From: Gemmatimonadota bacterium
Lineage (GTDB): Bacteria > Gemmatimonadota > Gemmatimonadetes > Gemmatimonadales > GWC2-71-9
NCBI GenBank assembly: GCA_039589275.1
Contig: JBDHHP010000029.1
Span: 1,109 to 65,108 of the forward strand
Direction of reading: 5' to 3'
Length of the DNA: 64,000 bases
Shown here: one piece after another, positions 9,209 to 58,577 of the stretch
How the letters are laid out: each line of letters begins with the position of its first letter
Position numbering within the stretch: position 1 is the stretch's first letter
Notes under the pieces: model-generated
Databases searched by the model: none
What the model was told of the DNA's origin: nothing
The model's input: the letters and a program-made list of their open reading frames with translations, nothing else
Translations under genes and position numbers: made by a program

Positions 9209-9793
9209 ATGCGGATCTTGATTGCGGAAGATGACAGAGTCACCCGCCTGATGCTCGCCAAGATGATCGAAGTACAGGGGCACGACGTGGTGCAGGCGAC
9301 AGATGGTGCCGAGGCATGGGAGCTGTTCCAGAGACATGAGACGAGACTGATCATTACCGATTGGCTCATGCCGAACGTAGACGGATTGAAGCTGTGCCAA
9401 ATGGTGCGCGCCCAGCGCCACGCACGCTACGTCTACATCATGGTACTCACCTCCCTCGAAAGAAAGCAGAACTACCTCGAGGCGATGGATGCTGGTGCGG
9501 ACGACTTCCTCAACAAGCCGGTGGATGTGGCCGAGCTGAAGGCGCGGCTGCGAGTTGCCGAGCGCATCCTCGCGCTCCAGGGCGAGGTCGACTTGTTGGA
9601 GGGGTTGCTGCCGATCTGCATGTACTGCAAGAAGATCCGGGACGATGACGAGAGTTGGCATCAGTTGGAGCAGTACGTTGAAGACCGCTCAGAAGTTGAA
9701 TTCTCCCATGGAGTCTGCCCGAACTGCTACGAGCTTCACATGAAGCCGCATATAGATGCTGCTGGTGGCCCTGGATCCAGAGGCAAGGGGTAG
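9209..9793 (+). CDS. response regulator: REC domain plus Cys/His-rich C-terminal module
   Basis: From ORF 9158..9793 with the ATG at 9209 (MRILIAEDD). REC signatures are present (DD, IITDWLMP, LTS, NKP). The C-terminus reads LPICMYCKKIRDDDESWHQLEQYVEDRSEVEFSHGVCPNCY. Confidence 0.85.
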   Translation: MRILIAEDDRVTRLMLAKMIEVQGHDVVQATDGAEAWELFQRHETRLIITDWLMPNVDGLKLCQMVRAQRHARYVYIMVLTSLERKQNYLEAMDAGADDFLNKPVDVAELKARLRVAERILALQGEVDLLEGLLPICMYCKKIRDDDESWHQLEQYVEDRSEVEFSHGVCPNCYELHMKPHIDAAGGPGSRGKG

Positions 9794-10994: not shown

Positions 10995-12794
10995 TCACAC
11001 CGCGCCGGGGTCGGCCCTGCCTTCCCAGCCTTTTTCGGCATAGTAGTCCTGCACCATTCGACCGATGTCTACGACCGTGCCCTTGGCCGGGCCATCCGGG
11101 ATTGGCTCGCCGACAAAACGAGGTGGCAAAGTGTCTTCTTCGGGCCTTAATCCTTCCCGTAGATTGAAGTCGCGCTCGACCTGGCTCACGTGAGAACAGA
11201 CCTTCCATAGATCGTGAGCCGCGATGTCCCGTCCCAGCAATCCCGAGTAGGCCTCCGCCGCCAAATCGAAGTCCACGACGTCCATGCAGCAGGAGATGTT
11301 CTTGCAGATCGTCATACTGTCAGACAGGAGGCCCATATGCTCAGCGTAATTGACCAGAGCGCCCTTACCGTCCTCCTTTAGACGGTGTGCCGCGTTGCGG
11401 TTACCCACACGGCGCATGGCGAGATCCTCGTCTCCAGTCAGCTCGATCATCGGCTCACCACGGTAGTGATCACCGCCCCGCGAGTTGACGGCGTTCATCA
11501 AGGCGTAACCTTTGATCCCACGCGGATCGGCGGAGAACAGTTCCAGTCCTTTTACTTCTGCAGTGAGCTTGCGGGCATTGGTCCCGAATTCCCTGGCCGC
11601 GCGCTTTGTCCCCTGGGCCAGGAGATCACCAATACCCTCGCGGCGCGCAATCACTTCGGGAAGTCGCAGGAGCGCGTCGCGCGAGCCCCAAGAGAGGTCG
11701 ACGCCATCCACGTCACCGTCTGAGATCACACCTTCGTGACGGCACTCCATGAGCCATGCAATCACTTCCGCCGTACTGATGCAGTCGAGGCCGAGCCGAT
11801 TCACCAGGTTCGACACATGCACGCCGAGTTCCAGATCGGAGTTGCCGCACTTGACGGTGAATCCTGCCTGCGCCTCGTACTCTGGGCCTTCTCCCTCACT
11901 GTAGCTGGTGTAATTGTACCGGGAGCAGTAAACGTTGCAGTTGTAGCAGGCCTTGGCCTTCACCACGTGATCTCTGCGCAGTGCGTCGGCGTTGACCTTC
12001 TCAAGGTCAGCATAGAGCGCACTGCGATAGTGATAAGCGGGCAGCACACCCATATCGGCCAGCGAATCCATGATGCGGGTCGTGCCATACTTTCGGCGTG
12101 ACTCGAACTGACGATGCTCCTCGATGTTCGATTGAAGCAACGCACAGGCTTTCTTGAACCTCTCCCTATCTGCGGGTTTCACGGGTTGGTCGCCCCGCAC
12201 CACAATGGCCTTCAGCTTCTTCGATCCCATCACTGCACCCATTCCGGTCCGTCCGGCTGCACGCGTGAGATTGCAGGAGATGATGGCGTACCGGACCAGG
12301 TTTTCACCCGCAGGTCCTATCGTGGCTACCTGGATGTCGGGATCGCGTAACTCGCTCTGCAGCTTGACGGTAGTCTCAGTGATGTCCAGCCCTACGAGAT
12401 GGGAGGCATCACGGATTTCGACGCGATCGTTGTCTATGAACAGGTAGACCCAGCGGTTAGACACACCGGTGAACACTATCTGATCGTGACCGGCCCAGCG
12501 AAGCTCGGGCGCGAAGAACCCCCGCGCACCCGAGTCGCCCAGGTACCCCGTCAAGGGGCTCTTGGCGCTCGCGATGAACCGGCACGTAGAGATCAGCTCG
12601 CTTCCGGTGAGCGGACCAACCGAGATACAGAGCAGGTTTTCTGGTCCGAGCGGGTCGATGCTCGGTCTTAGCTCGTCGAGTAGAGTAACGCTGTTCCAGG
12701 TCCTGCCGCCGATTCCGTTTTCCGGAGTCAGCCCTCGGTTGATCTCGCCGTCGGTAAGGTCGACGCGCAGGGAGTTGCCACGGTAGATGCTCAT
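10995..12794 (-). CDS. aor: aldehyde:ferredoxin oxidoreductase family (tungsten/molybdopterin AOR)
   Basis: 599 aa. The N-terminal AOR domain reads LRVDLT...GGR...LLDE...DPLGPENLL.ISVGPLTG, followed by IGPAGENLVRYA and GMGAVMGSKKLKAIVV. The start overlaps the upstream ferredoxin stop (ATGA at 12791-12794). Confidence 0.9.
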   Translation of the reverse strand: MSIYRGNSLRVDLTDGEINRGLTPENGIGGRTWNSVTLLDELRPSIDPLGPENLLCISVGPLTGSELISTCRFIASAKSPLTGYLGDSGARGFFAPELRWAGHDQIVFTGVSNRWVYLFIDNDRVEIRDASHLVGLDITETTVKLQSELRDPDIQVATIGPAGENLVRYAIISCNLTRAAGRTGMGAVMGSKKLKAIVVRGDQPVKPADRERFKKACALLQSNIEEHRQFESRRKYGTTRIMDSLADMGVLPAYHYRSALYADLEKVNADALRRDHVVKAKACYNCNVYCSRYNYTSYSEGEGPEYEAQAGFTVKCGNSDLELGVHVSNLVNRLGLDCISTAEVIAWLMECRHEGVISDGDVDGVDLSWGSRDALLRLPEVIARREGIGDLLAQGTKRAAREFGTNARKLTAEVKGLELFSADPRGIKGYALMNAVNSRGGDHYRGEPMIELTGDEDLAMRRVGNRNAAHRLKEDGKGALVNYAEHMGLLSDSMTICKNISCCMDVVDFDLAAEAYSGLLGRDIAAHDLWKVCSHVSQVERDFNLREGLRPEEDTLPPRFVGEPIPDGPAKGTVVDIGRMVQDYYAEKGWEGRADPGAV

Positions 12795-45324: not shown

Positions 45325-46869
45325 TCAAGGCACCTGGCGCACCACTGCACTGGCGGCGGCAGCCAATATCTCGACCGCCCGGAACACGTGACCCAAACGC
45401 ACGTTCTCGTTCCGGGCGTGTTGATTGTTGTCGTGGTTCACCGTGGGAACGACCACGAACGGCGCACCGAGGATCTCGGTATAGACATATGCCGGCCCTG
45501 AGCCTCCCATAGTGGGACTGACAACCGGAACTCCTAGACCCACACCTTCCAGCGAAGCGACCAACCCTCGCGCGGCTGCCGATGAGAGTGGCGTGCGGCC
45601 GGCGGGATAGCCGCCGCGCGCCTCGACCATGAGGAGGCGCGGCGTACTGACTCGCGTGATCGAGTCGGGCTCCTCTCTAACGACCGTGTATCCCTGCCGC
45701 TCGACGTGGCGTACCAGTTTCTCCACCTGAACTCCCGGATGGTTTCCAGAAACCAAGCGGAGATCAAGCTCGGCAACTGCAACATCCGGAATCGCCGTAC
45801 GAGCCTGTGCACCGACGAACAGGCTCTGTAATCCACGTACGTTGAGAGACGGCCGCGCCACCATTTCGAGCCGCTTGCCGCCTCTGCCATCTAGCGACCC
45901 CAGCTGAAGCTGCGCTCTGCGAAGATCGTCGTCATGAGGATACGCGTCCAGCGCCGCCTGCTCCGCCGGACCCAGCGGCACCATGTCGTCTTCCCAGCCT
46001 TCCACCAGCACCTCACCGTCCGGACCCTTCATTGTGGCGAGTAGCTGCGCTAAGCGCATGGCGGGATTTGGTACCCAGTTCCCGTAGTGTCCCGAATGGA
46101 GCGGAACGATGGGGCCGTACAGCGTGAGCCGCACGCTCACCATGCCGCGCAAACCAAAGTCCGCCGTTGGACGCCCCGACGGATGGATGGGACCGTCCGC
46201 CATTACGACTAAGTCGGCCGAGAACAGCTCGCGATGCTCACGCATCAGATCATCCAGATGCGGTGATCCCGCTTCTTCTTCACCCTCGAACAGGAACTTG
46301 ATTCTATTCGGGGGCGTGATCCCCGCTTCGCGCCACGCGTCGAGCACGTGCATCAACGCCACAATAGGGGATTTGTCATCGCTGGCCGACCGCGCGAACA
46401 TGCGCCAGTCAGACTCCACCAGATCGCCTGGCTCTGGCCAAGCCTCAATCACCTGCCCGCCGGCCTCCATCGACTCGGTGCGCAACACCGCCATCCAGGG
46501 CGACTGCTGCTCCCACCCACCGGGATCAGCCGGCTGGCCGTCGTAGTGGCAGTAAAACAAAACCGTCGGCAACTCAGCATCACCGATCTCGCCGTATACA
46601 ACCGGCGGTCCTCCGGCTCTCAGCAACCGGGTGCTGATTCCGCGTCGCTGCATCATCTCAACCAACGCTACCGCATTGCGCTCGATATTTGCGGAATCCG
46701 ATGCAACGTTTGGTATTGCGAGGAAGTCCCGCAATTCGGCCACGATTTCCGCGCGGTGAACGTCGGTGTACTGTCGGGCGGCCTCTACTGGGTGTTGTGC
46801 GGACAGTGCGCCGGTAGCACCGAGCAGCAACAGGGCTGACGCCATTGAGACTGGACTCTTGAACATCAT
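45325..46869 (-). CDS. M20 family dipeptidase/carboxypeptidase, secreted
   Basis: From ORF 45325..46935. An ACGAGGA lies before the ATG at 46869 (MMFKSPVSMASALLLLG). Contains YCHYDGQP, ARSASDDKSP, FEGEEE.GS and a conserved C-terminal half. Confidence 0.85.
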   Translation of the reverse strand: MMFKSPVSMASALLLLGATGALSAQHPVEAARQYTDVHRAEIVAELRDFLAIPNVASDSANIERNAVALVEMMQRRGISTRLLRAGGPPVVYGEIGDAELPTVLFYCHYDGQPADPGGWEQQSPWMAVLRTESMEAGGQVIEAWPEPGDLVESDWRMFARSASDDKSPIVALMHVLDAWREAGITPPNRIKFLFEGEEEAGSPHLDDLMREHRELFSADLVVMADGPIHPSGRPTADFGLRGMVSVRLTLYGPIVPLHSGHYGNWVPNPAMRLAQLLATMKGPDGEVLVEGWEDDMVPLGPAEQAALDAYPHDDDLRRAQLQLGSLDGRGGKRLEMVARPSLNVRGLQSLFVGAQARTAIPDVAVAELDLRLVSGNHPGVQVEKLVRHVERQGYTVVREEPDSITRVSTPRLLMVEARGGYPAGRTPLSSAAARGLVASLEGVGLGVPVVSPTMGGSGPAYVYTEILGAPFVVVPTVNHDNNQHARNENVRLGHVFRAVEILAAAASAVVRQVP

Positions 46870-46957
46870 TGGGTTGATCCTCGTTGGGCTGCTGCGATAG
46901 ACAACGAGCCGCTGCAGAAGCCAGGCAGCGGCCATTGCGGATGGCGTGGGTGTCTTG

Positions 46958-47410
46958 CTATTCGCCGATCAACTCCTTCACGGCGTCGATCAGCTCGTCG
47001 GGGTCTATCGGTTTGTCGATAAACTTCTCCGGCCGCACCAACCCCTCGTCTCTCATCTTGATGATCGTCTTCTTGAGACTCTCGCGCAGGCTATCGAAGG
47101 GACGCTCAAATGTATCTCCGGTAGCCTGGCTCTCGTCTTCCTCGAGCACCTCGGCTACGGCGGTGAGCATGATGACCGGGATGTCTTTGTATTCGTCCTT
47201 CCTGCGCAGCTGTTTGAACATGACGAAGCCGGTCTTCTTCGGCATCATCACATCCAACAGAATCAGATCGGGCTTTGATTCCCCGACCATCCTGAGCCCC
47301 TCGTCTCCGTCGGAAGCCGTGACCGGATCGTATCCATTTTCGCTCAGCGCAACCGAAAGGAACCTGCGTGTATTATCATCATCATCGACTACCAACACCC
47401 GCTTCGACAT
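46958..47410 (-). CDS. single-domain (CheY-like) response regulator
   Basis: A GGAGGAGG lies just before the ATG at 47410. Reads MSKRVLVVDDDD...DLILLDVMMP...MLTA.... No output domain is present. Confidence 0.85.
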   Translation of the reverse strand: MSKRVLVVDDDDNTRRFLSVALSENGYDPVTASDGDEGLRMVGESKPDLILLDVMMPKKTGFVMFKQLRRKDEYKDIPVIMLTAVAEVLEEDESQATGDTFERPFDSLRESLKKTIIKMRDEGLVRPEKFIDKPIDPDELIDAVKELIGE

Positions 47411-49370
47411 CAACCTCCTCCTCTCTCATACTTGGGCCCTTGATCGGCAACATGACGCGGAACGCTGCTCCCTTGCCCGGCTCGGACTCGACAGCGGTGC
47501 TACCGCCGTGGGAGCCCACGATTCGAGCCACAACTGCCAATCCCATTCCAGTGCCCTTCTTCTTCTTGGTGCTGAAGAACGGCGTGAAGATCTTGGCCTG
47601 GACTTCCTCAGCTATTCCTTCCCCGTTGTCGCTGACCTCAATTTCCACATAACCGTCGACGCTGGCCCGCTCCACCTTCAGCCTAACCTCTGGTTGTTCC
47701 TCCTCACCGTACTTCTTCCATGAACAAGCGTCTTGGGAGTTTGAAAGTAAATCCATCACTACCGAACGGATCAACTCCGGGTCGCACTCGATCATTGGCA
47801 AATCATCAGTCACCTCGACGGACAATTGTATGCCAGACCCTTTGAACTTAGCATCGCTCAGCGAGTGGATCTTGTTCGCCAGGGCGGCCAAGTCAGTGGG
47901 TTTCAGATCGAGATCCCGTTCCCTGGCAAAGTCCAACATGCTCTTTGACATCTCGGTCATGTTGGTAATACCCTCTTCCACCATCTGCCACCCCTCACTC
48001 AGCATCTGCTTGTTGTCCTTCGACAAGCCCAGCCTGACCATGTAGGATCCGCCCTTGAGGACGTTGAGCAGGTTCTTGATGGAATGCTGGATCCCGGTCA
48101 ACGCCTGTCCCAAAGCTGCCATTCTCTCGGATTGGAGCAGCTTCCGCTGCAGTCGGATTTCCCTAGTGACGTCCTTACTGATACCGATTGTCCCGATGGC
48201 CATGCCCTCCGGATCCCGCAGCCGCGACAGGGTCAGCAAGACGTGCCGAGCATCTCCACCTTTGGTCTTGAAACGAGTCAGATAATTCACCACGTGGTCG
48301 GTATCACGCAGTTGATCGATGGCGACGTCTCGCTCTCGTGGATCGGCGAACAGCATCTCGATTCTGCGCCCAACCACTTCCTCCCGATTGTATCCCAGTA
48401 TCTGCTCCGCGCCTCTGTTGAAGGAGTCGATCAGACCGGTGGGATCCACGGTAATGATAATGTCAGGAGAGTTCTCGACGATTTCCTGCAAGTACTCCTG
48501 CGTGTTCAGGAGCTCGGAGTAGGTTGTGGAGAACTCTGACGTGATGCTGTCGAAAATCTGCTCAACCTGAGCTAAGCCATCCCTCTTGGGATCACTGAAC
48601 CTGAAACTGTAGTCATGGTCAGCGAGGCGCTGCGCTCCCTCACGAAGTGCACGGATCCGGGTGCCCACGAGTCTGTCCGTCATCCACCAGGTGGCTGCCG
48701 TGCCGATCAACAAGGCTACGAGGACAATCATCGCAGTCTGAAAGTTGCGTTGCGCGATGAGATCGTCGACGCGGGCCAAGGAATAATCCGCCTGAATCAC
48801 CCCAAGCAACTGGCCATCCGCCGCCCCGGAGTGACACTCGGCAGCGCTGCACCCTGCCTCGCTGACGACGGGTGTCACTACCGACACAACCCTTTCGCCA
48901 TCCGCCAAACTGAGGACTTCATCAAAGCTCCCAACAATCCAGTCCAAGGTCTGACCCGATGGCCCATGACAAACGTTGCAGGGCCAGGACTCCGGTTGTA
49001 CGGTGACATCGCCTTCCTGCAACTGGGATGCTACCACCCGTCCGTCGTGCGCGATGAGCCGGATGTCTCGGAAGGCGGGGTTCTCCGACGCCATCCGATT
49101 GACCGTGGCCCCGAGGGTCGGGTGCCCGTCACGCAGCATGAGATCCTCGATCCTGCCATGGATTCTCTCAGATGTCACTCTCGATAGGTCGCGTGCGGAG
49201 CTCAACTCTGCGCGCTCGAAACTCAGGTTGGTTAGGTAACTCGAGATTCCGAGAACGCAAACGAGTATGACCAGCATCACACCGTTCACCTGCCAGACCA
49301 GTCGCCGCCTTCTCAACACGGCCGGCAGAACCTGACTGTCTCTGGCTGGTTCGATTTGGTCTCTGCTCAT
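47382..49370 (-). CDS. sensor histidine kinase (periplasmic loop with haem-c motifs, HAMP, PAS, HisKA, HATPase)
   Basis: From ORF 47382..49448, with the likely ATG at 49370. Two TM helices bracket a ~165-aa loop containing CNVCH and CSAAECH. A PAS region follows (IITVDPTGLI...). The H-box-like segment is IQHSIKNLLN, and the G-boxes are DNGEGI and GTGMGL. Confidence 0.85.
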   Translation of the reverse strand: MSRDQIEPARDSQVLPAVLRRRRLVWQVNGVMLVILVCVLGISSYLTNLSFERAELSSARDLSRVTSERIHGRIEDLMLRDGHPTLGATVNRMASENPAFRDIRLIAHDGRVVASQLQEGDVTVQPESWPCNVCHGPSGQTLDWIVGSFDEVLSLADGERVVSVVTPVVSEAGCSAAECHSGAADGQLLGVIQADYSLARVDDLIAQRNFQTAMIVLVALLIGTAATWWMTDRLVGTRIRALREGAQRLADHDYSFRFSDPKRDGLAQVEQIFDSITSEFSTTYSELLNTQEYLQEIVENSPDIIITVDPTGLIDSFNRGAEQILGYNREEVVGRRIEMLFADPRERDVAIDQLRDTDHVVNYLTRFKTKGGDARHVLLTLSRLRDPEGMAIGTIGISKDVTREIRLQRKLLQSERMAALGQALTGIQHSIKNLLNVLKGGSYMVRLGLSKDNKQMLSEGWQMVEEGITNMTEMSKSMLDFARERDLDLKPTDLAALANKIHSLSDAKFKGSGIQLSVEVTDDLPMIECDPELIRSVVMDLLSNSQDACSWKKYGEEEQPEVRLKVERASVDGYVEIEVSDNGEGIAEEVQAKIFTPFFSTKKKKGTGMGLAVVARIVGSHGGSTAVESEPGKGAAFRVMLPIKGPSMREEEVDVEAGVGSR

Positions 49371-49672
49371 CGCGCTCGATTCCTCGCAAACAGTGCATGA
49401 CGATCGGGTTGGAGCATCGCCACCTAGAACGCACATGAGAAGTGCCACTCCGACTGGCCCTGCGTAGTCCTGCGCGGCACTTCGTTTTGAATCTAGCGCC
49501 GAAGCGCATGATCCACGAGGTTCTCACTTGACCCGCCAACATGTTGTACAAAGCGCGCACACGTTTCGAGCGAACGTTTGATCTAGTGGCTGCTTTCGCC
49601 ACCCCACACAACTGGCTTTTGGACAGCGCGTGGCGTAAAACCACCTAATCGTGATAAAAATCTCAATGGGGG

Positions 49673-49700
49673 TTGACGCACGGTCAGTGTGAGGTAGAAT
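49673..49700 (+). promoter_or_regulatory. sigma-70-like promoter candidate for the qmo operon
   Basis: TTGACG (49673-49678), a 16-nt spacer, then TAGAAT (49695-49700). It lies about 240 nt upstream of the qmoA ATG. Confidence 0.4.
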
Positions 49701-49940
49701 CAAGAAGCGGCACAAAACGTGAAAAAAATCGCGGAAGCCTTGGCCAAGATGGTTCGCCAGAGAATTCGGCTCGACTTGAGGGGTTTATGGGCAGATACCG
49801 CAGCCATCCACATTCCCGCACTCCAAGCTCGCTTGGGTCGGGCATCGTGTTACCAGTCGTCAAGGCGTCAAGGTCACCCACTACACCATCCCTGAGACGA
49901 CACAACCAGCGTGTCGCAACTTGCATCCAGAGAGCGTGCT

Positions 49941-51200
49941 ATGAGTGGTGAGGCAAAGCCAATTCTAGTAATAGGAGGAGGGATTGCGGGAATGACCGCG
50001 GCGCTGGAAGCCGCGGAAGTCGGTTGCCCCGTGATTCTGGTCGAGAAGGACGCGTTCCTTGGCGGGCGCGTGATGCGCTCCTACAAATACTTCCCGAAGA
50101 TGTGTCCGCCAACTTGCGGGTTCGAGATCAACGCCCGCAGGATACGGCGCAATCCCAGGATAACCGTGCACACGCTGTCCACAGTGGAACAGGTTGCCGG
50201 TAAGGCGGGTGACTTCACCGTCAAGATCAAGAAGCGACCGCGTTACGTCACTGGGCAGTGCTCACTGGACGAGTCTATCGCGGAACAGCTCACATCCGAA
50301 CGGCCCGACGACTTGAACATGGGAATGGGCACAACCAAGGCCCTGTACTACCCGCACGACATGGCGTACCCGCCGTTCCACATGCTCGACAAGGAGGCCC
50401 TTTCTGAGTCTGACGTTCAGACCCTCACTAAGGTGGCCCCCGCAGGAGCCATTGACCTGGACATGGCGGAAGAAGACCTCGAGGCCGACGTTGGCGCGAT
50501 CATAATCGCGACCGGCTGGAGGCCCTATGATGCCAGCAAGCTCGACAACCTAGGCTTCGGGCAGTGCGAAAACGTCATCACCAACGTGATGATGGAGCGT
50601 ATAGCTGACCCTCGAGGACCCACGGGTGGAAAGATCTTACGCCCCTCTGACGGGAACAGCGCCAAGAACGTTGCGTTCGTGCAATGTGCGGGCTCGAGAG
50701 ACGAGAACCACCTGCCCTACTGCTCCGCGGTTTGTTGTATGGCGTCGCTCAAACAGGCTCGATACCTGAGGGAAAGCAATGAAGACGCTAAGGTGACCGT
50801 GTTCTACATCGACATTCGCACCATCGGCCGATTGGAGAAGTTCTACTACGGCCTGCTGGAAGACGCCAACGTCTCGTTTGTCAAAGGCAAAGTAGGCAAG
50901 ATTACAGAAGACCCGGGCAGCAAGGACTTGATCCTGGACGTAGAAGACACCATAGCCGGTGAGAAGCCCGAACAGAGCTTCGACATGGTGGTGCTGGCCA
51001 CTGGCATCGTGCCAAATACGGCCGATGTCAAGATACCGTTCGAGTTGGAGTACGATGAGTACGGCTTTGTCGATAGTGTCACGGACGTGGACGGAATCTA
51101 TGCCGCAGGTTGCGCAAAGCACCCCTGCGATGTCTCCCGTGCGACCAAGGAATCGACGGCAGCCGCACTGAAGGCAATTCAGTGCGTCAAAAGAGGATGA
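49941..51200 (+). CDS. qmoA: QmoA (HdrA-like FAD/FeS flavoprotein)
   Basis: From ORF 49911..51200 with the ATG at 49941. Reads PILVIGGGIAGMTAALEAAEVGCPVILVEK...LGGR....YKYFPKMCPPTCG.EIN.RRI..NP.... Confidence 0.8.
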   Translation: MSGEAKPILVIGGGIAGMTAALEAAEVGCPVILVEKDAFLGGRVMRSYKYFPKMCPPTCGFEINARRIRRNPRITVHTLSTVEQVAGKAGDFTVKIKKRPRYVTGQCSLDESIAEQLTSERPDDLNMGMGTTKALYYPHDMAYPPFHMLDKEALSESDVQTLTKVAPAGAIDLDMAEEDLEADVGAIIIATGWRPYDASKLDNLGFGQCENVITNVMMERIADPRGPTGGKILRPSDGNSAKNVAFVQCAGSRDENHLPYCSAVCCMASLKQARYLRESNEDAKVTVFYIDIRTIGRLEKFYYGLLEDANVSFVKGKVGKITEDPGSKDLILDVEDTIAGEKPEQSFDMVVLATGIVPNTADVKIPFELEYDEYGFVDSVTDVDGIYAAGCAKHPCDVSRATKESTAAALKAIQCVKRG

Positions 51201-51205
51201 CCCCA

Positions 51206-53479
51206 ATGGAAGACAAGATCGGTGTTTTCGTCTGTACCGGTTATGGAATAGCAGAGGCCCTCGACGTCGATGCGCTGTGCAAAGTGGCAACCGAAGAGTT
51301 CAGTGTGCCATTCTGCAAAGCAGTCGAGTCCTGCGAGGGGCCGGGACTAGCGGCGATCAACGAGGATATCAACAACGAAGGCCTGAACAAGGCACTCATT
51401 GCCGGCATATCTCCGCGCCGCTATCCCGATGATGCGTTTCCGGACGGTGTGATCGTCGAGCCCGTGGCCATTCGGGAGCACGTCGTGTGGAGCCTGCCCG
51501 GAAGCGAGGAAGACACGCAGATGGCGGCGCAGGATTACCTCCGCATGTACCTAACGAAACTGCAGAAGACGAAGCCGTTAGAGCCGTTTCAGCCCGATGA
51601 GGAGATTGATAAGAGCCTCCTCGTGGTTGGTGGCGGAATAGCAGGTTTGACTGCGGCGGTGGAAGCGGCCAACGCGGGATATGATGTGAGGCTGGTGGAG
51701 AGAACTGACAAGCTCGGTGGCTGGCTGGCCAAGCAGCACAAATCGATTCCCACCAAACCTCCGTACCGCGAACTCGAGGACACAGGCATTGACGCCCTGA
51801 TCGCGGAGGTCGACGGGCATCCGAGAATCCAACTGTACACATCGGCCACTACTAGCCAGATCCTCGGAGCGCCGGGCCTATTCGACGTCACACTGAAGTC
51901 GACGGGAAACGGAAAACCTGAGGGCGAGGTCATCGACGAGTTCCGCATCGGAGCGATCGTTCAGGCTACGGGTTGGACGCCGGACGATCCCCGTGACAAC
52001 CTGCCGTACGGCGGACTCGACGACGTGATTCGAAACGTCGACCTCGAGGAGATGGTCAAGAACCAGGGCCGCATTACCCGCCCGTCCGACGGCAAAGAAG
52101 TGAAGAACATTGCCTTCATACAGTGTGGCGGGTGCAAAGACAAAGAGCACCATTCATACTGTTCGTCCATCTGCTGTCTCACCTCGCTCAAACAGGCACT
52201 TTACCTGCGCGAGCAAGACAAGGACTCCAAGGCCTACATCTTCTACGAGTTCATGCGTACGCCAGGTAAGTACGAGAGCTTCTACCGCAGGACGCAAGAA
52301 GATGAGGGAGTGTTCCCGACGAGGGGAGAAGTGACAGACGTTCAGCGCGGCGATGACGGTGTGCTCAACGTAACGGTTCGCGACACAATGCTTGGCAAAC
52401 AGATACAGGTCAACGTGGATCTCGTGGTCCTGGCAGCCGGCATGATCCCGAATTCGGCGGACGGAGAAGCCATCCGGGCACTGGAGGATGCCAAGATAAC
52501 ACTCGTCGAGGGGGATTCGGAGACCAAGAAGAAGGACGCCGCTGAAACAGTCGAGAAGCTCATACAACACGAGGGAACCGAGATACTGAACCTCGGTTAC
52601 CGGCAGGGCCCCGACCTGCCGACCCTGGAGTATGGTTTCCCGGATTCACACTTCATCTGCTTTCCCTATGAAAGCCGTCGCACAGGCATCTATCCCACAG
52701 GTGCCGCACGCCAGCCGATGGACGGTCTGGGAAGCAGAGAAGACGCAACAGGTGCCGCATTGAAGGCAATTCAATGCGTCGAGATGACTTCGCGGGGAGA
52801 GGCAGTACACCCCCGTGCCGGTGACAGATCCTACCCGGACTTCTTTATGCAGCGATGCACGAAGTGCAAGCGTTGCACAGAGGAGTGTCCTTTCGGCGTT
52901 CTCAATGAGGACAAGGAGGGCACGCCGCTGCTGAGAGCCACGCGGTGCCGCCGCTGTGGAGTCTGTATGGGTGCCTGTCCCGAGAGAATCGTCTCCTTCA
53001 AGGATTACTCGGTCGACATTGTCGGATCGATGATAAAGGCGGTCGACGTCCCGGACGAGTTTGAGGAGAAACCCAGGATCCTCGTGATTGCCTGCGAGAA
53101 CGACGCTTTCCCGGCATTCGACCTACTAGGCCAGCGTAGACTGGAGGGCAATCCATGGGTCAGAGTCGTGCCAGTCAGGTGTCTGGGATCCGTCAACTTC
53201 GTTTGGATTACTGATGCAATGTCAGCCGGATATGACGGAGTGATCTTGATGGGCTGTAAGTACGGCGATGACTATCAGTGCCATTTCGTCAAAGGCAGTG
53301 AACTGGCATCGGTGCGTGAGAAGAACGTCAGAGAGAAACTCGAACAGATGGCAATGGACACGGAGAGGGTAGAACTCCATCAGCTGCAGATCGACGAATA
53401 CTACAAGCTCCCAGGCATATTTGAGAAATTCACGGAGCTGATCGATGAAATCGGTATGAACCCGTTCAAGGGGATGTAA
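51206..53479 (+). CDS. qmoB: QmoB (HdrA-like flavoprotein with C-terminal MvhD-like domain)
   Basis: From ORF 51110..53479. An AGAGGA lies ~9 nt before the ATG at 51206 (MEDKIGVFVCTGYGI); an alternative ATG at 51197 overlaps the qmoA stop. Contains VVGGGIAGLTAA, two CxxCxxCxxxCP groups, and the MvhD-like RILVIACENDA...VRCLGSV...GCKYGDDYQCHF. Confidence 0.8.
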   Translation: MEDKIGVFVCTGYGIAEALDVDALCKVATEEFSVPFCKAVESCEGPGLAAINEDINNEGLNKALIAGISPRRYPDDAFPDGVIVEPVAIREHVVWSLPGSEEDTQMAAQDYLRMYLTKLQKTKPLEPFQPDEEIDKSLLVVGGGIAGLTAAVEAANAGYDVRLVERTDKLGGWLAKQHKSIPTKPPYRELEDTGIDALIAEVDGHPRIQLYTSATTSQILGAPGLFDVTLKSTGNGKPEGEVIDEFRIGAIVQATGWTPDDPRDNLPYGGLDDVIRNVDLEEMVKNQGRITRPSDGKEVKNIAFIQCGGCKDKEHHSYCSSICCLTSLKQALYLREQDKDSKAYIFYEFMRTPGKYESFYRRTQEDEGVFPTRGEVTDVQRGDDGVLNVTVRDTMLGKQIQVNVDLVVLAAGMIPNSADGEAIRALEDAKITLVEGDSETKKKDAAETVEKLIQHEGTEILNLGYRQGPDLPTLEYGFPDSHFICFPYESRRTGIYPTGAARQPMDGLGSREDATGAALKAIQCVEMTSRGEAVHPRAGDRSYPDFFMQRCTKCKRCTEECPFGVLNEDKEGTPLLRATRCRRCGVCMGACPERIVSFKDYSVDIVGSMIKAVDVPDEFEEKPRILVIACENDAFPAFDLLGQRRLEGNPWVRVVPVRCLGSVNFVWITDAMSAGYDGVILMGCKYGDDYQCHFVKGSELASVREKNVREKLEQMAMDTERVELHQLQIDEYYKLPGIFEKFTELIDEIGMNPFKGM

Positions 53480-53560
53480 TCGGGATGTGATTGACGTGTA
53501 GCGGGCCGCAGCAGCTGGAGTTGGTGACAACTCGAGGTGGTAGTTGGAGGAGCGACGACC

Positions 53561-54895
53561 ATGGTGACTGCTGGAATCGCGGCACCCGGGAAACCGGACA
53601 TGACCGAGCAGGGGACTTCTCAAACCACCCCTGCCCAGTTCAACGACAGTGGATCGGCTCTGATCGATCCCGATCTCGACTTCATCCGGACGCTGTCCCA
53701 ACAGAGCGGCGAGTCATACAGGAAGTGCTTCCAGTGCGGTACGTGCTCGGCAACCTGCCCCATCTCGCCAGACAAAGATCCCTTCCCACGCAAGGAGATG
53801 GCCTGGGCTGTCTGGGGCCTGAAAGATCGCCTCCTACAGGACCCTGACGTATGGCTGTGTCACCACTGCAACGACTGCTCGGTTAGTTGCCCGCGTAGCG
53901 GCGGCCCAGGAGATGTACTGGCAGCGGTGCGGAGAGCAAGCGTAATACACTACGCTGCCCCACGTTTCCTAGCGAGATGGGTTAACCAACCGCGCTTCGT
54001 GCCGCTCCTCTTGGGTCTCCCTGCGCTCCTGTTGGGACTCGCGGTATGGCTGCGCGAGCCGATCGGAAACGCTCTGGGATTCGCCGTGCCTACTGGTGAC
54101 TCGATCGTGTATGCCTACTCCTACATGTATCCGCATTGGCTGCTCAATAGCTTCTTCGGCATCTTCACACTACTGGCCCTGACCGCCGCGATCATCGGAC
54201 TAGTGCGATTCATCCGAGTCATTAAGGCCCCTAAGGTCTGGGGTGCCACCGGTCCGCCGGATCGCAGCTTCGTGGGCAGCGCGTGGACAGCAATCAAGCA
54301 GATCTTCACACACGACAAGTTCACGTCATGCACTGCCGAGCACTCACGTCCGCTGTCTCATCTATGTGTGTTCATCGGCTTCATCGCGCTCTCCGTTGTC
54401 ACGTTCTGGGTGATCACGGGGCCAATCAATCCCTTGCTCAAAGACGGATTCATCTACCCGTTCAGTTTCTGGAGTCCCTGGAAGCTGTTGGCAAATGTCG
54501 GCGGAGCGGCGGTCTTCTTCGGATGCGTTCTGATGATTAGGCAGCGGCTCCGCAACCGAGACAACGCTGGCTTGAGCACCTACTTCGACTGGGCGCTTGT
54601 CTGGACTCTGTTCGCCGTAGTAGTGAGCGGCTTCGCCACAGAAGCGCTGCATTACTTGCGGATGGTACCACACCGGCACGTTGTCTACTTCATTCACCTC
54701 ATCTTCGTATTCGCCCTCCTCATCTACCTACCCTACTCGAAGTTCGCACACATACTGTATCGCACCGCGGCCATGATCTACGCTGAGTACTACGGTCGCA
54801 ACGGCAGCGGGTCCAGTGTTGCCACTTCGCGCGTGGGAAGAACCGATGACGAGTTACACGTCCAAACCCCAACGAGCGGTGGAGCGTTGCCATGA
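53561..54895 (+). CDS. qmoC: QmoC (HdrC-like FeS domain fused to NarI/HdrE-like membrane cytochrome b domain)
   Basis: From ORF 53537..54895. A GGAGGAG lies 8 nt before the ATG at 53561. Contains CFQCGTCSATCP and CHHCNDCSVSCP, followed by ~6 hydrophobic helices with conserved His. Confidence 0.75.
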   Translation: MVTAGIAAPGKPDMTEQGTSQTTPAQFNDSGSALIDPDLDFIRTLSQQSGESYRKCFQCGTCSATCPISPDKDPFPRKEMAWAVWGLKDRLLQDPDVWLCHHCNDCSVSCPRSGGPGDVLAAVRRASVIHYAAPRFLARWVNQPRFVPLLLGLPALLLGLAVWLREPIGNALGFAVPTGDSIVYAYSYMYPHWLLNSFFGIFTLLALTAAIIGLVRFIRVIKAPKVWGATGPPDRSFVGSAWTAIKQIFTHDKFTSCTAEHSRPLSHLCVFIGFIALSVVTFWVITGPINPLLKDGFIYPFSFWSPWKLLANVGGAAVFFGCVLMIRQRLRNRDNAGLSTYFDWALVWTLFAVVVSGFATEALHYLRMVPHRHVVYFIHLIFVFALLIYLPYSKFAHILYRTAAMIYAEYYGRNGSGSSVATSRVGRTDDELHVQTPTSGGALP

Positions 54896-55299
54896 AGCTC
54901 AGCACAGCACTGCGCGGCAAGAAACTCGGCGCCGTCGTCACCGTCATGATCGTCATCATTCTGCTGCCATTCGGATTCAGCGTTGCCAGTCTCGCAATCC
55001 CGGGTGGTGACCAGATGCCAGACGTGTTCCTCGAGATGCCGGCAGCTCAGTTCGATAGCTGTGTCAGGGACACGGAATACATGCGCTTTCGCCACATGGA
55101 TCTCCTCAAGCAGATCAGAGAGGAGTTCATCCGCGACGGCATTAGGGGAAACGTGTCACTGACGGGCTGCAGGGACTGCCACACGAGCAGAGAGCGGTTC
55201 TGTGACCAGTGCCATCAGGCCGCCACCGTCATCCTCGATTGCTTCGGTTGTCACTACTATCCGGAGCCCGGCGAAGATAGCCGGCAGCTCGGATCGTGA
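54892..55299 (+). CDS. DsrJ-like membrane-anchored triheme cytochrome c
   Basis: 135 aa. The ATG overlaps the qmoC TGA. One N-terminal helix, then CRDCH, CDQCH and CFGCH, plus a conserved upstream Cys (FDSCVR). Confidence 0.7.
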   Translation: MKLSTALRGKKLGAVVTVMIVIILLPFGFSVASLAIPGGDQMPDVFLEMPAAQFDSCVRDTEYMRFRHMDLLKQIREEFIRDGIRGNVSLTGCRDCHTSRERFCDQCHQAATVILDCFGCHYYPEPGEDSRQLGS

Positions 55300-55307
55300 G
55301 GCGCAAC

Positions 55308-56054
55308 ATGGGCACCATGGATAGAAGGGACTTCCTGAAGAAGAGTGGTGCCGTCTTGGCCGGCACCTCTGGTGCGTTGAGCCTACCTCTTCTGACAGCG
55401 TGCGATGCCAATACTGCAAGTGCAGATAGTCCCCTGGCTGGACGCAAGTGGGGCATGGTGATCGATCTGAGCAAGTGCCAAGACGACTGTACCGCCTGCT
55501 TGGATGCGTGCAGGCACGAGAACAACGTGGCCTTTCATAACGACAAGCGATGGGACATACACTGGATCAGGAAGGTCAATATCAAGAGTAAGGAGTCCGA
55601 GGAACACGCCGAGAAATCCGTCATTTTGCTGTGCAACCACTGTGAGAACCCACCGTGTGCTCAGGTCTGCCCAGTACAGGCTACCTACAAACGAGCCGAC
55701 GGTATCGTCGTGGTGGATCACCACCGGTGTATCGGGTGTCGCTATTGCATGGTCGCTTGCCCTTACAACGCCAGGTTCTTCAACTACAAAGAGACCGAAG
55801 AATGGCCCAACACTGACTTCCCCAAGAGATCCCATGGGGTGGCCGAGTCATGCAACTTCTGCGCTCATTTGCTCGATCAAGGCAGAATGCCTGCGTGTGT
55901 CGAGGCGTGCGACGCGATGGAAATCCGAGCGCTGCATTTTGGGGACCTCAACGATCCGGGAAGCGAAGTGTCGCAGATCATTGAGACCACCCCCGTGAAG
56001 CGGATCCGCGATGATTGGGGCACCGAACCGAAAGTCTACTACTTGGGCCTGTAG
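55308..56054 (+). CDS. DsrO/NrfC/HybA-like Tat-exported 4Fe-4S ferredoxin subunit
   Basis: From ORF 55296..56054. The GTG at 55296 overlaps the upstream TGA, and a GTGAGG precedes the ATG at 55308. Tat motif DRRDFLKK. Cluster motifs CNHCENPPCAQVCP, CIGCRYCMVACP and CNFC...CVEAC. Confidence 0.85.
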   Translation: MGTMDRRDFLKKSGAVLAGTSGALSLPLLTACDANTASADSPLAGRKWGMVIDLSKCQDDCTACLDACRHENNVAFHNDKRWDIHWIRKVNIKSKESEEHAEKSVILLCNHCENPPCAQVCPVQATYKRADGIVVVDHHRCIGCRYCMVACPYNARFFNYKETEEWPNTDFPKRSHGVAESCNFCAHLLDQGRMPACVEACDAMEIRALHFGDLNDPGSEVSQIIETTPVKRIRDDWGTEPKVYYLGL

Positions 56055-56077
56055 GCCCGTTACCGTGAGGTAGTCGG

Positions 56078-57268
56078 ATGCAAGTCGAGTTCGCGAAGAT
56101 AGAGGGAAGGTCGGTGGGTTTCTATATGGCGGCTGCCGTGCTAGCTGTATTCGGCATTGCCGGCGTCTACTCCACGTACCTCATGAGCGTGCACGGGCTG
56201 TATCTGTCGGGGATGACGAACCGCGTGCCATGGGGACTGCAGATCTCGATGGCCATCTTCTACATTGGTCTGTCGGCTGGTTCCCTGGTGGTTTCGGGTC
56301 TATATGGCATCTTCGGCAAGGTAGAGTACAAGCCGTTTGCCCGAATTGCCGCGTATCTCGCGATGCTGTTCTTGATCGCCGGACTGCTGTCCATTCTGAC
56401 TGACCAAGGCAGAATCGACAGGGTGTTCGTCAAGCCATTCACCTACTTCAACTTCTCGTCGATGTTCTCGATCAACCCGTCGCTGTACTCGGGTCACGTG
56501 TTGATCTGCATCATCTACCTGTGGGCCCTGTTCAGGGAAAAAGGCACGCTCACCAAGATCGCGTCCTTCACGGTGTGCTTGTGGGCAATAGGAACCCACA
56601 CCGGCACAGGCGCCATCTTCGCGTTCGTACCGCGCGAGCTGTACAACTCCGCCCTACTTCCACCCAGCTTTGTTGCGGCCGCACTCTCATCCGGAGCCGC
56701 CCTGATGATACTCGTCAAGGTTGGGCTGTTCCGCGGTACAGGGCGTCACATGGACGACAAGTTGGTGATATGGCTTGGAAGGCCTCTGCTTGCAGTCTTC
56801 CTGGTTTGCACCCTATACGTGCTACTGATCGAGAACCTGCATCGCTTCTACCTCGCCGAGTCCCATGAAGCAGGCATGTTCTTCCTGTTTGGTGGCCTTC
56901 ACAGCGCTATGTTCTGGTTCGGTCTGATAATATTCGGCTGCGTAATCCCGGCAATACTGCTCTTCGTCAAGCGAACCGGGACCTCGGTGCCGTGGATAGT
57001 CTTCGCGTCTACGCTCGTAGTGGTTGGAGTGCTGTTCGAGCGATTCCTCATCGTGATACCGGGTCTGATCCACCCACCAGAGCTCTTCCCGGGATGGGAG
57101 ATCACTGGAACGGTACTGTGGGAGGGAATAGTGGACTACTCGATCAGTTTCTACGAAATACTCCAGGCTCTGGGAGTACTCGGCATAGTCGGGTTTGCGT
57201 TCCTGATGGGACTCAAGTTCCTGCCCCTGGCTCCGACTAAAGCGGTGGCGCTACCGACAGCGGCGTAG
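56078..57268 (+). CDS. DsrP/NrfD/PsrC-like polytopic quinone-interacting membrane subunit
   Basis: 396 aa with ~10 helices. The NrfD-type N-terminal region reads TNRVPWGLQISMAIFYIGLSAG. A GTGAGG ribosome-binding site is present. Confidence 0.85.
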   Translation: MQVEFAKIEGRSVGFYMAAAVLAVFGIAGVYSTYLMSVHGLYLSGMTNRVPWGLQISMAIFYIGLSAGSLVVSGLYGIFGKVEYKPFARIAAYLAMLFLIAGLLSILTDQGRIDRVFVKPFTYFNFSSMFSINPSLYSGHVLICIIYLWALFREKGTLTKIASFTVCLWAIGTHTGTGAIFAFVPRELYNSALLPPSFVAAALSSGAALMILVKVGLFRGTGRHMDDKLVIWLGRPLLAVFLVCTLYVLLIENLHRFYLAESHEAGMFFLFGGLHSAMFWFGLIIFGCVIPAILLFVKRTGTSVPWIVFASTLVVVGVLFERFLIVIPGLIHPPELFPGWEITGTVLWEGIVDYSISFYEILQALGVLGIVGFAFLMGLKFLPLAPTKAVALPTAA

Positions 57269-57348
57269 CAGGTATTCTCAAGATGGTCGGTCGCGTTGGC
57301 AGTCAAGTGCTGCTGCCGCCGCCGTCTTCGACCGCCCTGGTCCGTCTT

Positions 57349-58329
57349 TCACCGCCCCTCGACCACTAACGTCCCCCGCTCATACATGTGATAGTCACTG
57401 CACCAGATCCCACAGTTAAACAGATACTCACCGGCCACGTCGGGAGTAAACGTCACCTCCCGCACATCACCGGGCTTGATTGGACCAGTGTCCAGATCGA
57501 ACGTCGGCAGGTAGGGGCTATGGGTCACCACGTCGACGTTCCGTATCACGATAGTCACGGGCTTTCCCTGCTCGCTGTTGTGTCGGTACCAACACCAAAG
57601 GCTGGACGATCGATATGGATTTCATGGCAAACGCTTCCATCTGCGCGCCGTCCCACACGGCGAAGGAAATCAGGGATGTACTCCCCAGCGAGAGTTCCCA
57701 CCCTCTTGTTGGTTCGACAGAGATCGCTTGAAGACGACACGCCACTTGCCGTCTCGATAATCTCCCTTACCCATGACGGTCTGATCGGGCAGGGGTGTCT
57801 GAGTTCCTGGACCCACCGTGATCAACTCCAGCACGGCATGCAGTGAATCAACGCCGTTCACATACTGCTCGGTGTCCCTGTCGGCCAACCAATGCCACAG
57901 GTTGCCAGTGGCATCCTGCCCCATCATCTGCGCTGCGGGGGGTGAATCCTCCGGGCCCAGAAACACCGCACAGGCATCGGGTGTCGACGATGTATCCCGA
58001 TTCTCTGTTTCGTCCTCAAACTCGACCAGTAGCGAGACATCGACATCGTTGAACGCGCCTCGTACCAGGATGTCCCGCTCCTCTCTGCCGTAGGGTAACC
58101 TGGCGTTCTGAGGCCAAAGATGGATCTGCATAGGCTCGATGGTGGTCCAGAACTCAGCGAAGGGGTCTATTGGCAGGGTGGAGCTTGTGTATCCGACAAC
58201 CAGAGGTTCTGGTTTAGTTACTCCCACTAGCTGGTCGCGGGTAACGCTGTAGACCACCAAGAAGTACCCTACACCCAGGAGCAGCAGCGTAACCGAGAAC
58301 GTCAAGACGGCCTTGGTGGAGCCTCTCAT
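57349..58329 (-). pseudogene. membrane-anchored EB_dh/DOMON-like haem-binding domain fused to a cupredoxin-like domain, interrupted by two compensating frameshifts
   Basis: ORF 57670..58329 (TM helix, ...MMGQDATGNLWHW..., DGKWRVVFKRSL) ends at a TGA at 57670. The conserved continuation LISFAVWDGAQME is in another frame (ORF 57518..57745). The cupredoxin-like end GKPVTIVIRNVDVVTHS...GEYLFNCGIWCSDYHM...TLVV (ORF 57349..57558) is back in the first frame. The span is 981 nt, which is 327 codons. The shifts map near 57694-57705 (GGGTGGG) and 57559-57568 (GGGAAAGCCC). Confidence 0.6.
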
Positions 58330-58577
58330 GTTCTATCCTCGAGGCGGAAAATCCTCCCAGCGACGCGCACCCCACGTTTGCTGAGCGGCGGCCGGACTCC
58401 AAGCCTCGGCATGCTTGTGGAGCCAGAAGGCAATCTACAGAACTGTGGTCTTACGGTCCCATTCGAATTCGAAAGGTACGCAGCCACAGACGGCCTGACC
58501 AGCAGCCGGCGCATGGTTTGGAAACAAACGTTCGGTCTGCCACGTATACAATTGAGACACCAACCATTGGGTGGCCC

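Follow-up and report, generated by a model that had tools for sequence, protein, structure and literature searches.

The question raised by the locus described here is what a Qmo complex might do when its genes, rather than adjoining those of adenosine 5'-phosphosulfate (APS) reductase (aprBA), run directly into a set of genes of the dsrJOP type. The locus lies within a 64,000-nucleotide stretch of DNA from a Gemmatimonadota bacterium (assembly GCA_039589275.1, contig JBDHHP010000029.1, positions 1,109 to 65,108 of the forward strand; this whole stretch is termed the ‘window’ below, and positions are counted from its first letter). Six co-directional open reading frames on its + strand, at 49941-57268, correspond in order to qmoA, qmoB, qmoC, dsrJ-like, dsrO-like and dsrP-like genes; both the content and the order, which had been proposed in an initial annotation of the window, are borne out by the reading frames in the sequence and by profile matches. 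We consider it probable, at roughly 60%, that these six genes encode one transmembrane electron-transfer complex built on the plan of DsrMKJOP, in which QmoC stands in for DsrM and QmoAB for DsrK.

The operon opens with qmoA (49941-51200), which encodes an HdrA-like FAD/iron-sulfur (FeS) flavoprotein of 419 amino acids (aa), and qmoB (51206-53479), which encodes an HdrA-like flavoprotein of 757 aa with a 2x[4Fe-4S] ferredoxin region and a C-terminal MvhD-like domain. These are followed by qmoC (53561-54895), whose product combines an HdrC-like 2x[4Fe-4S] N-terminal domain with a di-heme b domain of six transmembrane (TM) segments, and then by genes for a membrane-anchored tri-heme cytochrome c of 135 aa (dsrJ-like, 54892-55299), a ferredoxin of 252 aa with four [4Fe-4S] clusters that is exported by the twin-arginine translocation (Tat) pathway (dsrO-like, 55296-56054), and an NrfD-family quinone-interacting membrane subunit of 396 aa with about ten TM helices (dsrP-like, 56078-57268). 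The last three products are termed J, O and P below. The junctions had been described as coupled throughout, and four of the five are indeed overlaps or gaps of at most 23 nucleotides (nt). At the first, a possible qmoB ATG at 51197 overlaps the qmoA TGA (51198-51200), with the start called by JGI at 51206; qmoC and the J gene share an ATGA (54892-54895); the J and O genes share a GTGA (55296-55299; another possible O start is the ATG at 55308); and the O gene’s TAG (56052-56054) is separated from the P gene’s ATG (56078) by 23 nt that contain a GAGG. The sole exception is the qmoB/qmoC junction, where the genes are not coupled and about 81 nt separate the qmoB TAA (53477-53479) from qmoC; among the possible qmoC starts (53537, 53561 and 53600), the ATG at 53561, 8 nt after a GGAGGA, is the best. 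The JGI call for QmoC (54032-54895) comprises 287 aa of the membrane/CitB part and misses the HdrC-like FeS domain that is kept in all relatives. A scan of 49300-57800 gave ten terminator-like matches against 5.8 +/- 2.2 expected, all of them weak stems of 5-7 base pairs and mostly on the opposite strand, and placed none at a + strand gene junction.

The arrangement is not peculiar to this contig. A scan for QmoC, with one genome per GTDB species, yielded 80 loci, of which 63, including that of the window’s contig, form a ‘group 1’ in which qmoABC is followed by J, O and P. According to their record titles, these include 21 Gemmatimonadota, 15 Planctomycetota and 10 Acidobacteriota, the others being labeled Zixibacteriota, Latescibacterota, Fibrobacteraceae, LCP-89, Candidatus Electryonea and a few doubtful or unclassified entries, for about eight phylum-level labels in all. 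The same six-gene synteny, for which a search of other genomes had been proposed, is found in every one of the 42 group-1 loci that extend at least 3.3 kilobases (kb) downstream of qmoC; 39 of these pass an automated adjacency test, and the other three fail it through parsing artifacts, J, O and P being plain to see in each. Within the group the junctions have median spacings of 4 nt (qmoA/qmoB), 76 nt (qmoB/qmoC), -4 nt (qmoC/J, where 28 of 40 loci overlap or abut), 7 nt (J/O) and 22 nt (O/P). The six-gene arrangement is thus conserved far beyond chance.

The remaining loci provide the points of comparison. Group 2b, made up of other Gemmatimonadota and one metagenome-assembled genome (MAG) labeled Planctomycetales (L072), carries a canonical aprBA-X-qmoABC-sat-OsmC-dsrMKJOP-dsrAB island in which DsrM, DsrK and DsrA are unambiguous, and group 3, mostly Desulfobacterales, carries canonical aprBA-qmoABC. 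Group 2a consists of two loci from Terriglobales/Acidobacteriaceae MAGs (L062 and L063) that read aprBA-qmoABC-J, without O or P; the lone dsrJ-like genes of these loci lie at about 9160-9490 and at 11226-11615. The window itself matches JGI sediment metagenome contigs (samples 3300041079 and 3300041080), and its closest genome is the Gemmatimonadota MAG chromosome CP070666.1, at 80-90% amino-acid identity. Other carriers with a complete chromosome are CP070812.1, CP070792.1, CP070631.1, CP070824.1 and CP070717.1, and one further carrier is represented by a contig of 1.59 Mb (CAVONV010000023.1).

The first two proteins might, from their domains, have been taken for generic HdrA. QmoA is HdrA-like by profile search (JGI also names the protein QmoA), and in QmoB an HdrA-like part is accompanied by a 2x[4Fe-4S] region and, at residues 626-751, by an MvhD/FlpD domain (E 5e-35). 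Against the solved methanogen HdrA, QmoA and QmoB score 260 and 209 bits, whereas against Desulfobacterales Qmo they score about 440 (52-54% identity) and about 690, with an overall identity of 43-58% for the two proteins, and both fall far below the HdrA equivalog cutoffs (341 vs 1100 bits). Because these scores, the lengths and the domain orders all fit Qmo, QmoA and QmoB are of the Qmo type, as the initial annotation had supposed. Metagenomes hold over 120 clusters (made at 90% identity) whose identity to this QmoA is 72% or more; automatic annotation calls them QmoA or HdrA-family proteins. Two clade-specific cysteines near the QmoA C-terminus (residues 396 and 415, within 51126-51200) are present in 41 and 39 of 46 group-1 sequences; they were entertained as ligands of an extra cluster, an idea that was rejected on the ground that canonical QmoA has variable C-terminal cysteines at other positions.

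QmoC scores 373 bits against the NCBIfam qmoC equivalog NF038018 (cutoff 300). The eight cysteines of its two [4Fe-4S] clusters and four histidines (H238, H254, H366 and H384) are invariant across all Qmo groups, and the histidines are spaced by 16 and 18 residues on two helices in the manner of NarI-type di-heme proteins; six TM segments are predicted.

The three proteins encoded downstream differ in how closely they match their Dsr namesakes. For J, DsrJ is the best and only profile match, at 72.7 bits, under the cutoff of 100. A single N-terminal TM segment is predicted, and no variation is seen in its three CxxCH motifs or in Cys57, Met64 and His68 among 57 group-1 proteins and eight further members of the DsrJ family (six from canonical dsrMKJOP loci and the two from Terriglobales). 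O matches the DsrO equivalog with 296.8 bits (cutoff 200) and carries an RRDFLK Tat motif. All 16 of its cysteines are invariant in group 1, two of these being missing from the six canonical DsrO sequences compared, and the Tat arginines R10 and R11, H143 and R149 are invariant in both sets, H143 being the only histidine of which this is true. The DsrO of Acidobacteria, Zixibacteria and others is known to branch off from the main DsrO groups.

P is the most divergent of the three. It matches Pfam NrfD with 174 bits, and its best NCBIfam match is DsrP, at 76.7 bits against a cutoff of 350, a model to which a canonical DsrP from the Gemmatimonadota island scores 457 bits; identity to a canonical DsrP is 28%. 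It resembles DsrP in possessing about ten hydrophobic segments and in the residues D109 and E360, which are invariant in group 1 and canonical DsrP alike. A search with P among 1.84 billion cluster representatives yielded 457 relatives at E <= 1e-10, of which 52 reached E <= 1e-30; those that are full length and 30-49% identical to P (hits P0242-P0332) score below the cutoffs of all curated NrfD-family models, their best match being a weak one to DsrP. Since the relatives are likewise only weakly DsrP-like, P is part of a wider, uncharacterized DsrP-like branch of NrfD proteins. The product names originally assigned can therefore be kept for QmoA, QmoB, QmoC and DsrO, and J is DsrJ-like; the name DsrP holds for P only in the sense of a distant likeness, below the family cutoff. 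With its conserved Asp and Glu retained, P probably works like DsrP without being DsrP. Sequence searches of the PDB with J returned no match, and those with QmoC, O and P returned no solved Qmo or Dsr membrane subunit among their matches.

The trees bear on whether the two halves of the operon belong together. They were built by neighbor joining with bootstrap, and they contain neither HdrA outgroups, HdrA having been compared by bit scores, nor the published ‘type II’ Qmo of Vulcanisaeta and Ammonifex. Group 1 is monophyletic with bootstrap values of 100 for QmoA, 100 for QmoB, 88 for QmoC and 100 for O. The two Terriglobales loci are informative: their QmoC and J are each sister to group 1 (98 and 98), whereas their QmoA and QmoB cluster with the apr-linked group 2b (99 and 98). 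QmoC thus tracks J in phylogeny, the two trees being congruent, and because the trees split QmoC and J from QmoA and QmoB, the membrane/J part and the cytoplasmic head are modules with partly separate histories.

A corresponding signature is present in QmoC. At ten positions, a residue conserved across group 1 differs from that of canonical QmoC. Eight of the ten fall within residues 273-294 and 351-359, and they include a motif E-x-L-H-Y-x-R-x-x-P-H-R-H; canonical QmoC has Arg in place of His351. Seven of the ten are common to the Terriglobales QmoC, whose gene precedes J alone. Given a cytoplasmic FeS domain and six TM segments, the two loops are predicted to be periplasmic and to flank the outer heme (H254, H366), and it is there that a docking surface for J would be expected. 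A parallel is the DsrM-1 to DsrM-2 change described in a recent preprint (10.64898/2026.08.25.746951).

That preprint provides the model on which the proposed electron path is based. In the electron cryomicroscopy structure of Archaeoglobus fulgidus DsrMKJOP, quinol is oxidized at DsrP and electrons pass from DsrO to DsrJ, to the hemes of DsrM and to DsrK; the periplasmic face of DsrM contacts DsrJ, whose Cys/His heme is not catalytic; one DsrJ heme has DsrO His148 as an axial ligand; and DsrO Arg154, DsrP Asp107 and DsrP Glu359 line the quinol and proton-exit site (10.64898/2026.08.25.746951). H143 and R149 of O would correspond to His148 and Arg154, with an equal six-residue spacing, and D109 and E360 of P to Asp107 and Glu359, with near-identical numbering; all four are invariant here, and the cofactor ligands are intact in all six proteins. 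By homology with that structure, menaquinol would be oxidized at a periplasm-facing pocket of P, with protons leaving to the periplasm; electrons would then pass through the four [4Fe-4S] clusters of O to the three hemes c of J, from J to the two hemes b of QmoC and so across the membrane to its cytoplasmic HdrC-like clusters, and from these through the FeS, FAD and MvhD-like cofactors of QmoB and QmoA to a cytoplasmic acceptor. Such a path would be reversible in principle.

The placement of QmoC in the position of DsrM, and of QmoAB in that of DsrK, which the initial annotation had suggested, is supported by the synteny, the qmoC/J overlap, the congruent QmoC and J phylogenies and the residues retained in J, O and P. 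Its further suggestion of two quinone-facing subunits fares less well, for the structure of DsrMKJOP reported in 2026 favors a single active quinol site, located at P, from which electrons pass to the b-type cytochrome by way of J. By analogy, P is probably the working quinone site here as well. The module would then be the Qmo counterpart of the upgrade from DsrMK to DsrMKJOP, and it most likely works like a Qmo with a membrane entry remodeled along the lines of DsrMKJOP. The physical complex, its electron path, the direction of flow and the cytoplasmic partner are all things that we infer from genes and homology, and several considerations weigh against the reconstruction. The assembly of the six proteins is a prediction from their genes, and DsrOP-like modules are capable of joining other cytochromes in complexes of their own, cable bacteria being an example (PMC13047784). 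The gap between qmoB and qmoC would permit separate translation or RNA processing. P is distant from canonical DsrP and sits within a broader uncharacterized set. The correspondence of residues to A. fulgidus is one of numbering and spacing rather than of alignment to that sequence, the topology of the QmoC loops rests on hydropathy and on the cytoplasmic location of the FeS domain, and the clade-specific residues in those loops are phylogenetically correlated and so do not count as independent evidence.

If the six proteins do form one complex, the identity of its cytoplasmic partner becomes the next question, and here the linkage to sulfur genes is instructive. AprA, AprB, Sat, DsrM, DsrK and DsrA are absent from the 64-kb window by tblastn with queries from a canonical locus, so that the initial annotation was right to note the lack of aprBA, sat and dsrMK; the same searches gave no sign of an association with dsrAB or dsrC in the window. 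Across group 1, canonical DsrM and DsrK queries likewise found no tblastn match beside any operon, and 60 of the 63 loci (about 0.9 megabases (Mb) in total) contain no apr, sat or dsr gene. The presence of aprA in three of the 63 compares with its presence in every canonical qmoABC locus that has room upstream. The separation from sulfur genes therefore holds for the window and for the great majority of its relatives, and breaks down in three loci (L020, L022 and L047), all from Acidobacteriota, which adjoin aprBA, dsrA or sat, a frequency above that of random placement in a genome of 3-5 Mb.

These exceptions are of two kinds. In L020 and L022, the group-1 operon, a sensor kinase and a response regulator are followed directly by a canonical aprBA-X-qmoA; since a canonical qmoA stands beside the group-1 operon, two Qmo sets coexist in these organisms and are not simple substitutes for one another. 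In L047 (contig CAZHQK010000180.1, 1-21158), divergently upstream of the operon are found dsrA, a CxxCxxCC-domain gene, aprA, aprB and a MarR-family gene, and downstream of it a CoA-disulfide-reductase-like gene, cobA, a dsrN-like gene, sat and a NarI-like gene; this is the only locus in which DsrA adjoins the operon, and its 21 kb hold no second (canonical) qmoABC. In these few sulfur-linked Acidobacteriota the complex is likely to serve APS reductase. In most carriers the candidates for the partner are an AprAB encoded elsewhere, ferredoxin, or an NAD(P)-linked flavin-based bifurcation or confurcation. It is conceivable, though we would put the odds clearly against it, that the module is a sulfur-independent, proton-motive quinol:ferredoxin or quinol:NAD(P) oxidoreductase (or the reverse) of many anaerobic sediment lineages, in which the DsrJOP-like arm feeds a bifurcating or confurcating QmoAB head.

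The alternative that survives best, which we nevertheless regard as unlikely, is that the operon encodes an ordinary Qmo serving the APS reductase of a sulfate reducer, sulfite oxidizer or sulfur disproportionator, with aprBA, sat and dsr genes located elsewhere in the genome and JOP as an energy-coupling addition, so that only the gene order is new. QmoC does pass the QmoC equivalog model; the three sulfur-linked loci exceed random placement, one of them (L047) lacking a second qmoABC; and the Gemmatimonadota, Planctomycetota and Latescibacteria include MAGs with canonical apr-qmo-sat islands. AprA proteins 85-89% identical to that of Gemmatimonadota are found in MAGs labeled Planctomycetota, Phycisphaerae, Latescibacteria and Gemmatimonadales, and all three of the contexts L083-L085 share a core order of aprBA, Ogr_Delta, a CxxCxxCC-domain gene and qmoA, the two longer loci continuing with qmoBC-sat-OsmC and two of the three having a rex-like gene ahead of aprB; lateral sharing of the apr-qmo-sat island among phyla is suggested. 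Set against an ordinary APS-reductase-serving Qmo are the 60 loci without sulfur genes, when canonical loci with upstream room all have aprA; the canonical, apr-linked qmoA that L020 and L022 hold beside the group-1 operon; and the separation of group-1 QmoA and QmoB from their apr-linked counterparts at 100% bootstrap. Moreover, Dsr or Apr genes have been reported in only about 15% of marine Gemmatimonadota MAGs (PMC11316326), yet 21 Gemmatimonadota species representatives carry the operon.

Next, and in our judgment improbable, comes the idea that the same single complex runs outward, with ferredoxin, NAD(P)H or an MvhD-docked hydrogenase delivering electrons to QmoAB and from there through QmoC and J to menaquinone at P or to periplasmic acceptors. 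This would make of it a ferredoxin/NADH:quinone or extracellular-electron-transfer entry point unrelated to sulfur, in keeping with the absence of sulfur-gene linkage from most loci. Anoxic sediments are the source of the carriers, some of whose lineages are rich in ferredoxin-dependent and fermentative enzymes; an aldehyde:ferredoxin oxidoreductase and a BcrAD/BadFG-type activase are encoded in the window itself; HdrA-type flavins and MvhD domains are well-known points of contact for ferredoxin and hydrogenase (PMC3333476); and the related Qrc module is reported to reduce menaquinone (PMC6303296). What speaks against this reading is that the homologous P site of DsrMKJOP oxidizes quinol, and that no gene for a ferredoxin, a hydrogenase or a multiheme conduit is conserved beside the operon.

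Still less probable, to our minds, is a division of the operon’s products into two independent complexes, with QmoABC as a quinol-linked flavoprotein and JOP as a separate quinol:cytochrome c oxidoreductase that feeds periplasmic partners. The models for such a system are the DsrOhPh-tetraheme module of cable bacteria and modules of the Qrc or alternative complex III (ACIII) type; DsrOP homologs with a cytochrome of their own exist apart from DsrMK (PMC13047784; 10.64898/2026.08.25.746951), canonical QmoC is thought to oxidize quinol alone (PMC3333476), and P clusters with uncharacterized NrfD proteins rather than with DsrP. That view has difficulty, however, with qmoC and J genes that overlap or abut in 28 of 40 loci and with co-inheritance in 42 of 42, with Terriglobales that hold J directly after qmoC without O or P, and with the congruent QmoC and J trees and the QmoC loop signatures that correlate with J, which is itself of the DsrJ type, the subunit that touches the b-type cytochrome in DsrMKJOP. 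Finally, disulfide reduction of the HdrABC kind was rejected, as profile searches found no CCG-domain (HdrB-type) protein in the operon.

A single Qmo-based complex with a JOP arm may also be compared with the systems from which its parts are known. With the QmoABC of sulfate reducers and Chlorobi it shares three subunits, their domain layout and their cofactor ligands, and its QmoC passes the NCBIfam equivalog; it differs in that 60 of 63 loci are not beside aprBA, in forming a separate clade, in being followed always by J, O and P, and in the clade-specific QmoC residues of loops predicted to be periplasmic. With DsrMKJOP (a menaquinol:DsrC-trisulfide oxidoreductase) it shares a tri-heme J with a Cys ligand, a Tat-exported O with four clusters that keeps, as mapped by spacing, the histidine ligating a J heme, a ten-TM NrfD protein with the Asp and Glu of the quinol and proton-exit site, and a b-type cytochrome joined to a cytoplasmic FeS head. 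Unlike DsrMKJOP, it has neither DsrM nor DsrK, no CCG-domain (non-cubane cluster) subunit and no dsrAB or dsrC nearby, its head consists of HdrA-type flavoproteins, J and P fall under the equivalog cutoffs, and O has 16 cysteines where six canonical DsrO have two fewer. The module is therefore not DsrMKJOP, because DsrM and DsrK are absent and P lies below its family threshold; nor is it QmoABC as defined by linkage to aprBA.

Reshuffling of such parts has a precedent in cable bacteria, where a DsrOhPh-tetraheme locus occurs together with DsrMKJ, and similar rearrangements extend to organisms without sulfur metabolism (PMC13047784); the aprBA-qmoABC-J of Terriglobales parallels the DsrMKJ of cable bacteria. 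The cable-bacteria cytochrome differs in having four hemes, each with His/His ligation, and a Qmo or HdrA-type head is lacking there (PMC13047784). The wider kit of a periplasmic cytochrome c, an NrfC, an NrfD, a NarI-like cytochrome b and a cytoplasmic Hdr-type subunit is that of Hmc, Tmc, Qrc and HdrABC-MvhAGD, and QmoB shares with the last of these the MvhD-like domain that links Mvh to HdrA. The cytoplasmic sides of these systems are different: Hmc and Tmc have HdrD-like heads, Qrc has no cytoplasmic head, and HdrABC is soluble and includes HdrB. To our knowledge, none of them couples HdrA-type flavoproteins to a J/O/P module.

In line with the initial annotation, which knew of no characterized complex with this subunit set, no description of a qmoABC-dsrJOP-type operon or complex was found in the searchable literature, to which subscription-only papers do not belong; the arrangement is provisionally considered undescribed. 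As recently as 2024 the function of DsrJOP itself was described as ‘an enigma’ (PMC10861901), and it took the 2026 preprint, which makes no mention of Qmo, to put forward a role based on structure (10.64898/2026.08.25.746951); a review of the NrfD family includes no Qmo-linked member (PMC8076601).

The surroundings of the operon offer some indication of how it is controlled. Divergent from it lies a gene for a sensor histidine kinase with PAS, HisKA and HATPase domains (47382-49448, - strand; JGI places the start at 49370), accompanied by a single-domain response regulator (46958-47413, - strand) that consists of Response_reg only, has no DNA-binding output domain, and pairs with the kinase here and in related loci. 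TM segments of the kinase flank residues 69-230, which would place a domain of about 160 residues in the periplasm, and its two heme-c motifs, a CxxCH (C157-H161) and a CX4CH (C200-H206), are kept in 25 of 28 orthologs; a PDB sequence search with this sensor domain gave nothing meaningful. The motifs and topology suggest a heme-c-based periplasmic sensor of redox state or of a ligand. Among 22 loci with both flanks, 16 have an ortholog of the kinase within 1.5 kb of the operon, either divergent upstream or downstream on the same strand, and the kinase and regulator together probably couple the module to a signal from the periplasm, be it redox state or a ligand. Besides this pair, no family recurs in the flanks of more than about 12 of 82 loci, and those that do recur are apr genes of canonical loci or antisense artifacts. 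The response regulator has an apparent insertion of about 45 residues ahead of its conserved KP motif.

A sigma-70-like promoter candidate (TTGACG-16-TAGAAT, 10/12 match) lies at 49673-49700 on the + strand, about 240 nt upstream of qmoA, and constitutes weak evidence for a promoter, the number of such sites in the region not exceeding that in shuffled sequences. The sigma-54 pattern has no site upstream of qmoA and occurs across the whole window at chance level, and an Rfam scan of 46000-58500 gave no match at E <= 0.1.

Beyond the 3' end of the operon, and convergent with the dsrP-like gene, a gene at 57670-58329 (- strand) encodes an EB_dh protein (ethylbenzene-dehydrogenase gamma-like, of the heme-b DOMON type), and a small open reading frame at about 57349-57558 (- strand) is linked by JGI to Cupredoxin_1; both are present only in the closest relatives and lie outside the conserved unit. 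Elsewhere in the window, a protein of 1045 aa encoded at 452-3589 (+ strand) fuses a BcrAD/BadFG-type double ATPase to DUF2229 (a CoA-enzyme activase), and an aldehyde:ferredoxin oxidoreductase is encoded at 10995-12794 (- strand). The activase and the oxidoreductase suggest that this Gemmatimonadota-like organism has an anaerobic metabolism dependent on ferredoxin.

For the Qmo and Dsr families themselves, the occurrence of the same arm on a second, unrelated cytoplasmic head supports the view of JOP as a portable quinol-oxidizing and coupling module, and provides an independent system in which that view can be tested. An obligate JOP arm on a Qmo also bears on a long-recognized thermodynamic problem, namely that menaquinol on its own is not expected to reduce APS. 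AprAB binds mainly to QmoA, and menaquinol by itself gave no APS reduction in vitro, which led to the proposal of a third partner and of electron confurcation (PMC3333476).

A more practical consequence concerns the users of qmoABC as a marker gene set, for whom, as for students of anaerobic bioenergetics, the distinction matters. Surveys of the KEGG type are likely to count group-1 genes as a capacity for sulfate reduction or sulfite oxidation in Gemmatimonadota, Planctomycetota, Acidobacteriota, Zixibacteria and Latescibacteria, and that conclusion may be wrong. Should the sulfur-independent interpretation prove true, the module would belong to a class of energy-converting membrane complexes not recognized before, and would let the contribution of the long-enigmatic JOP arm be studied in a natural experiment.

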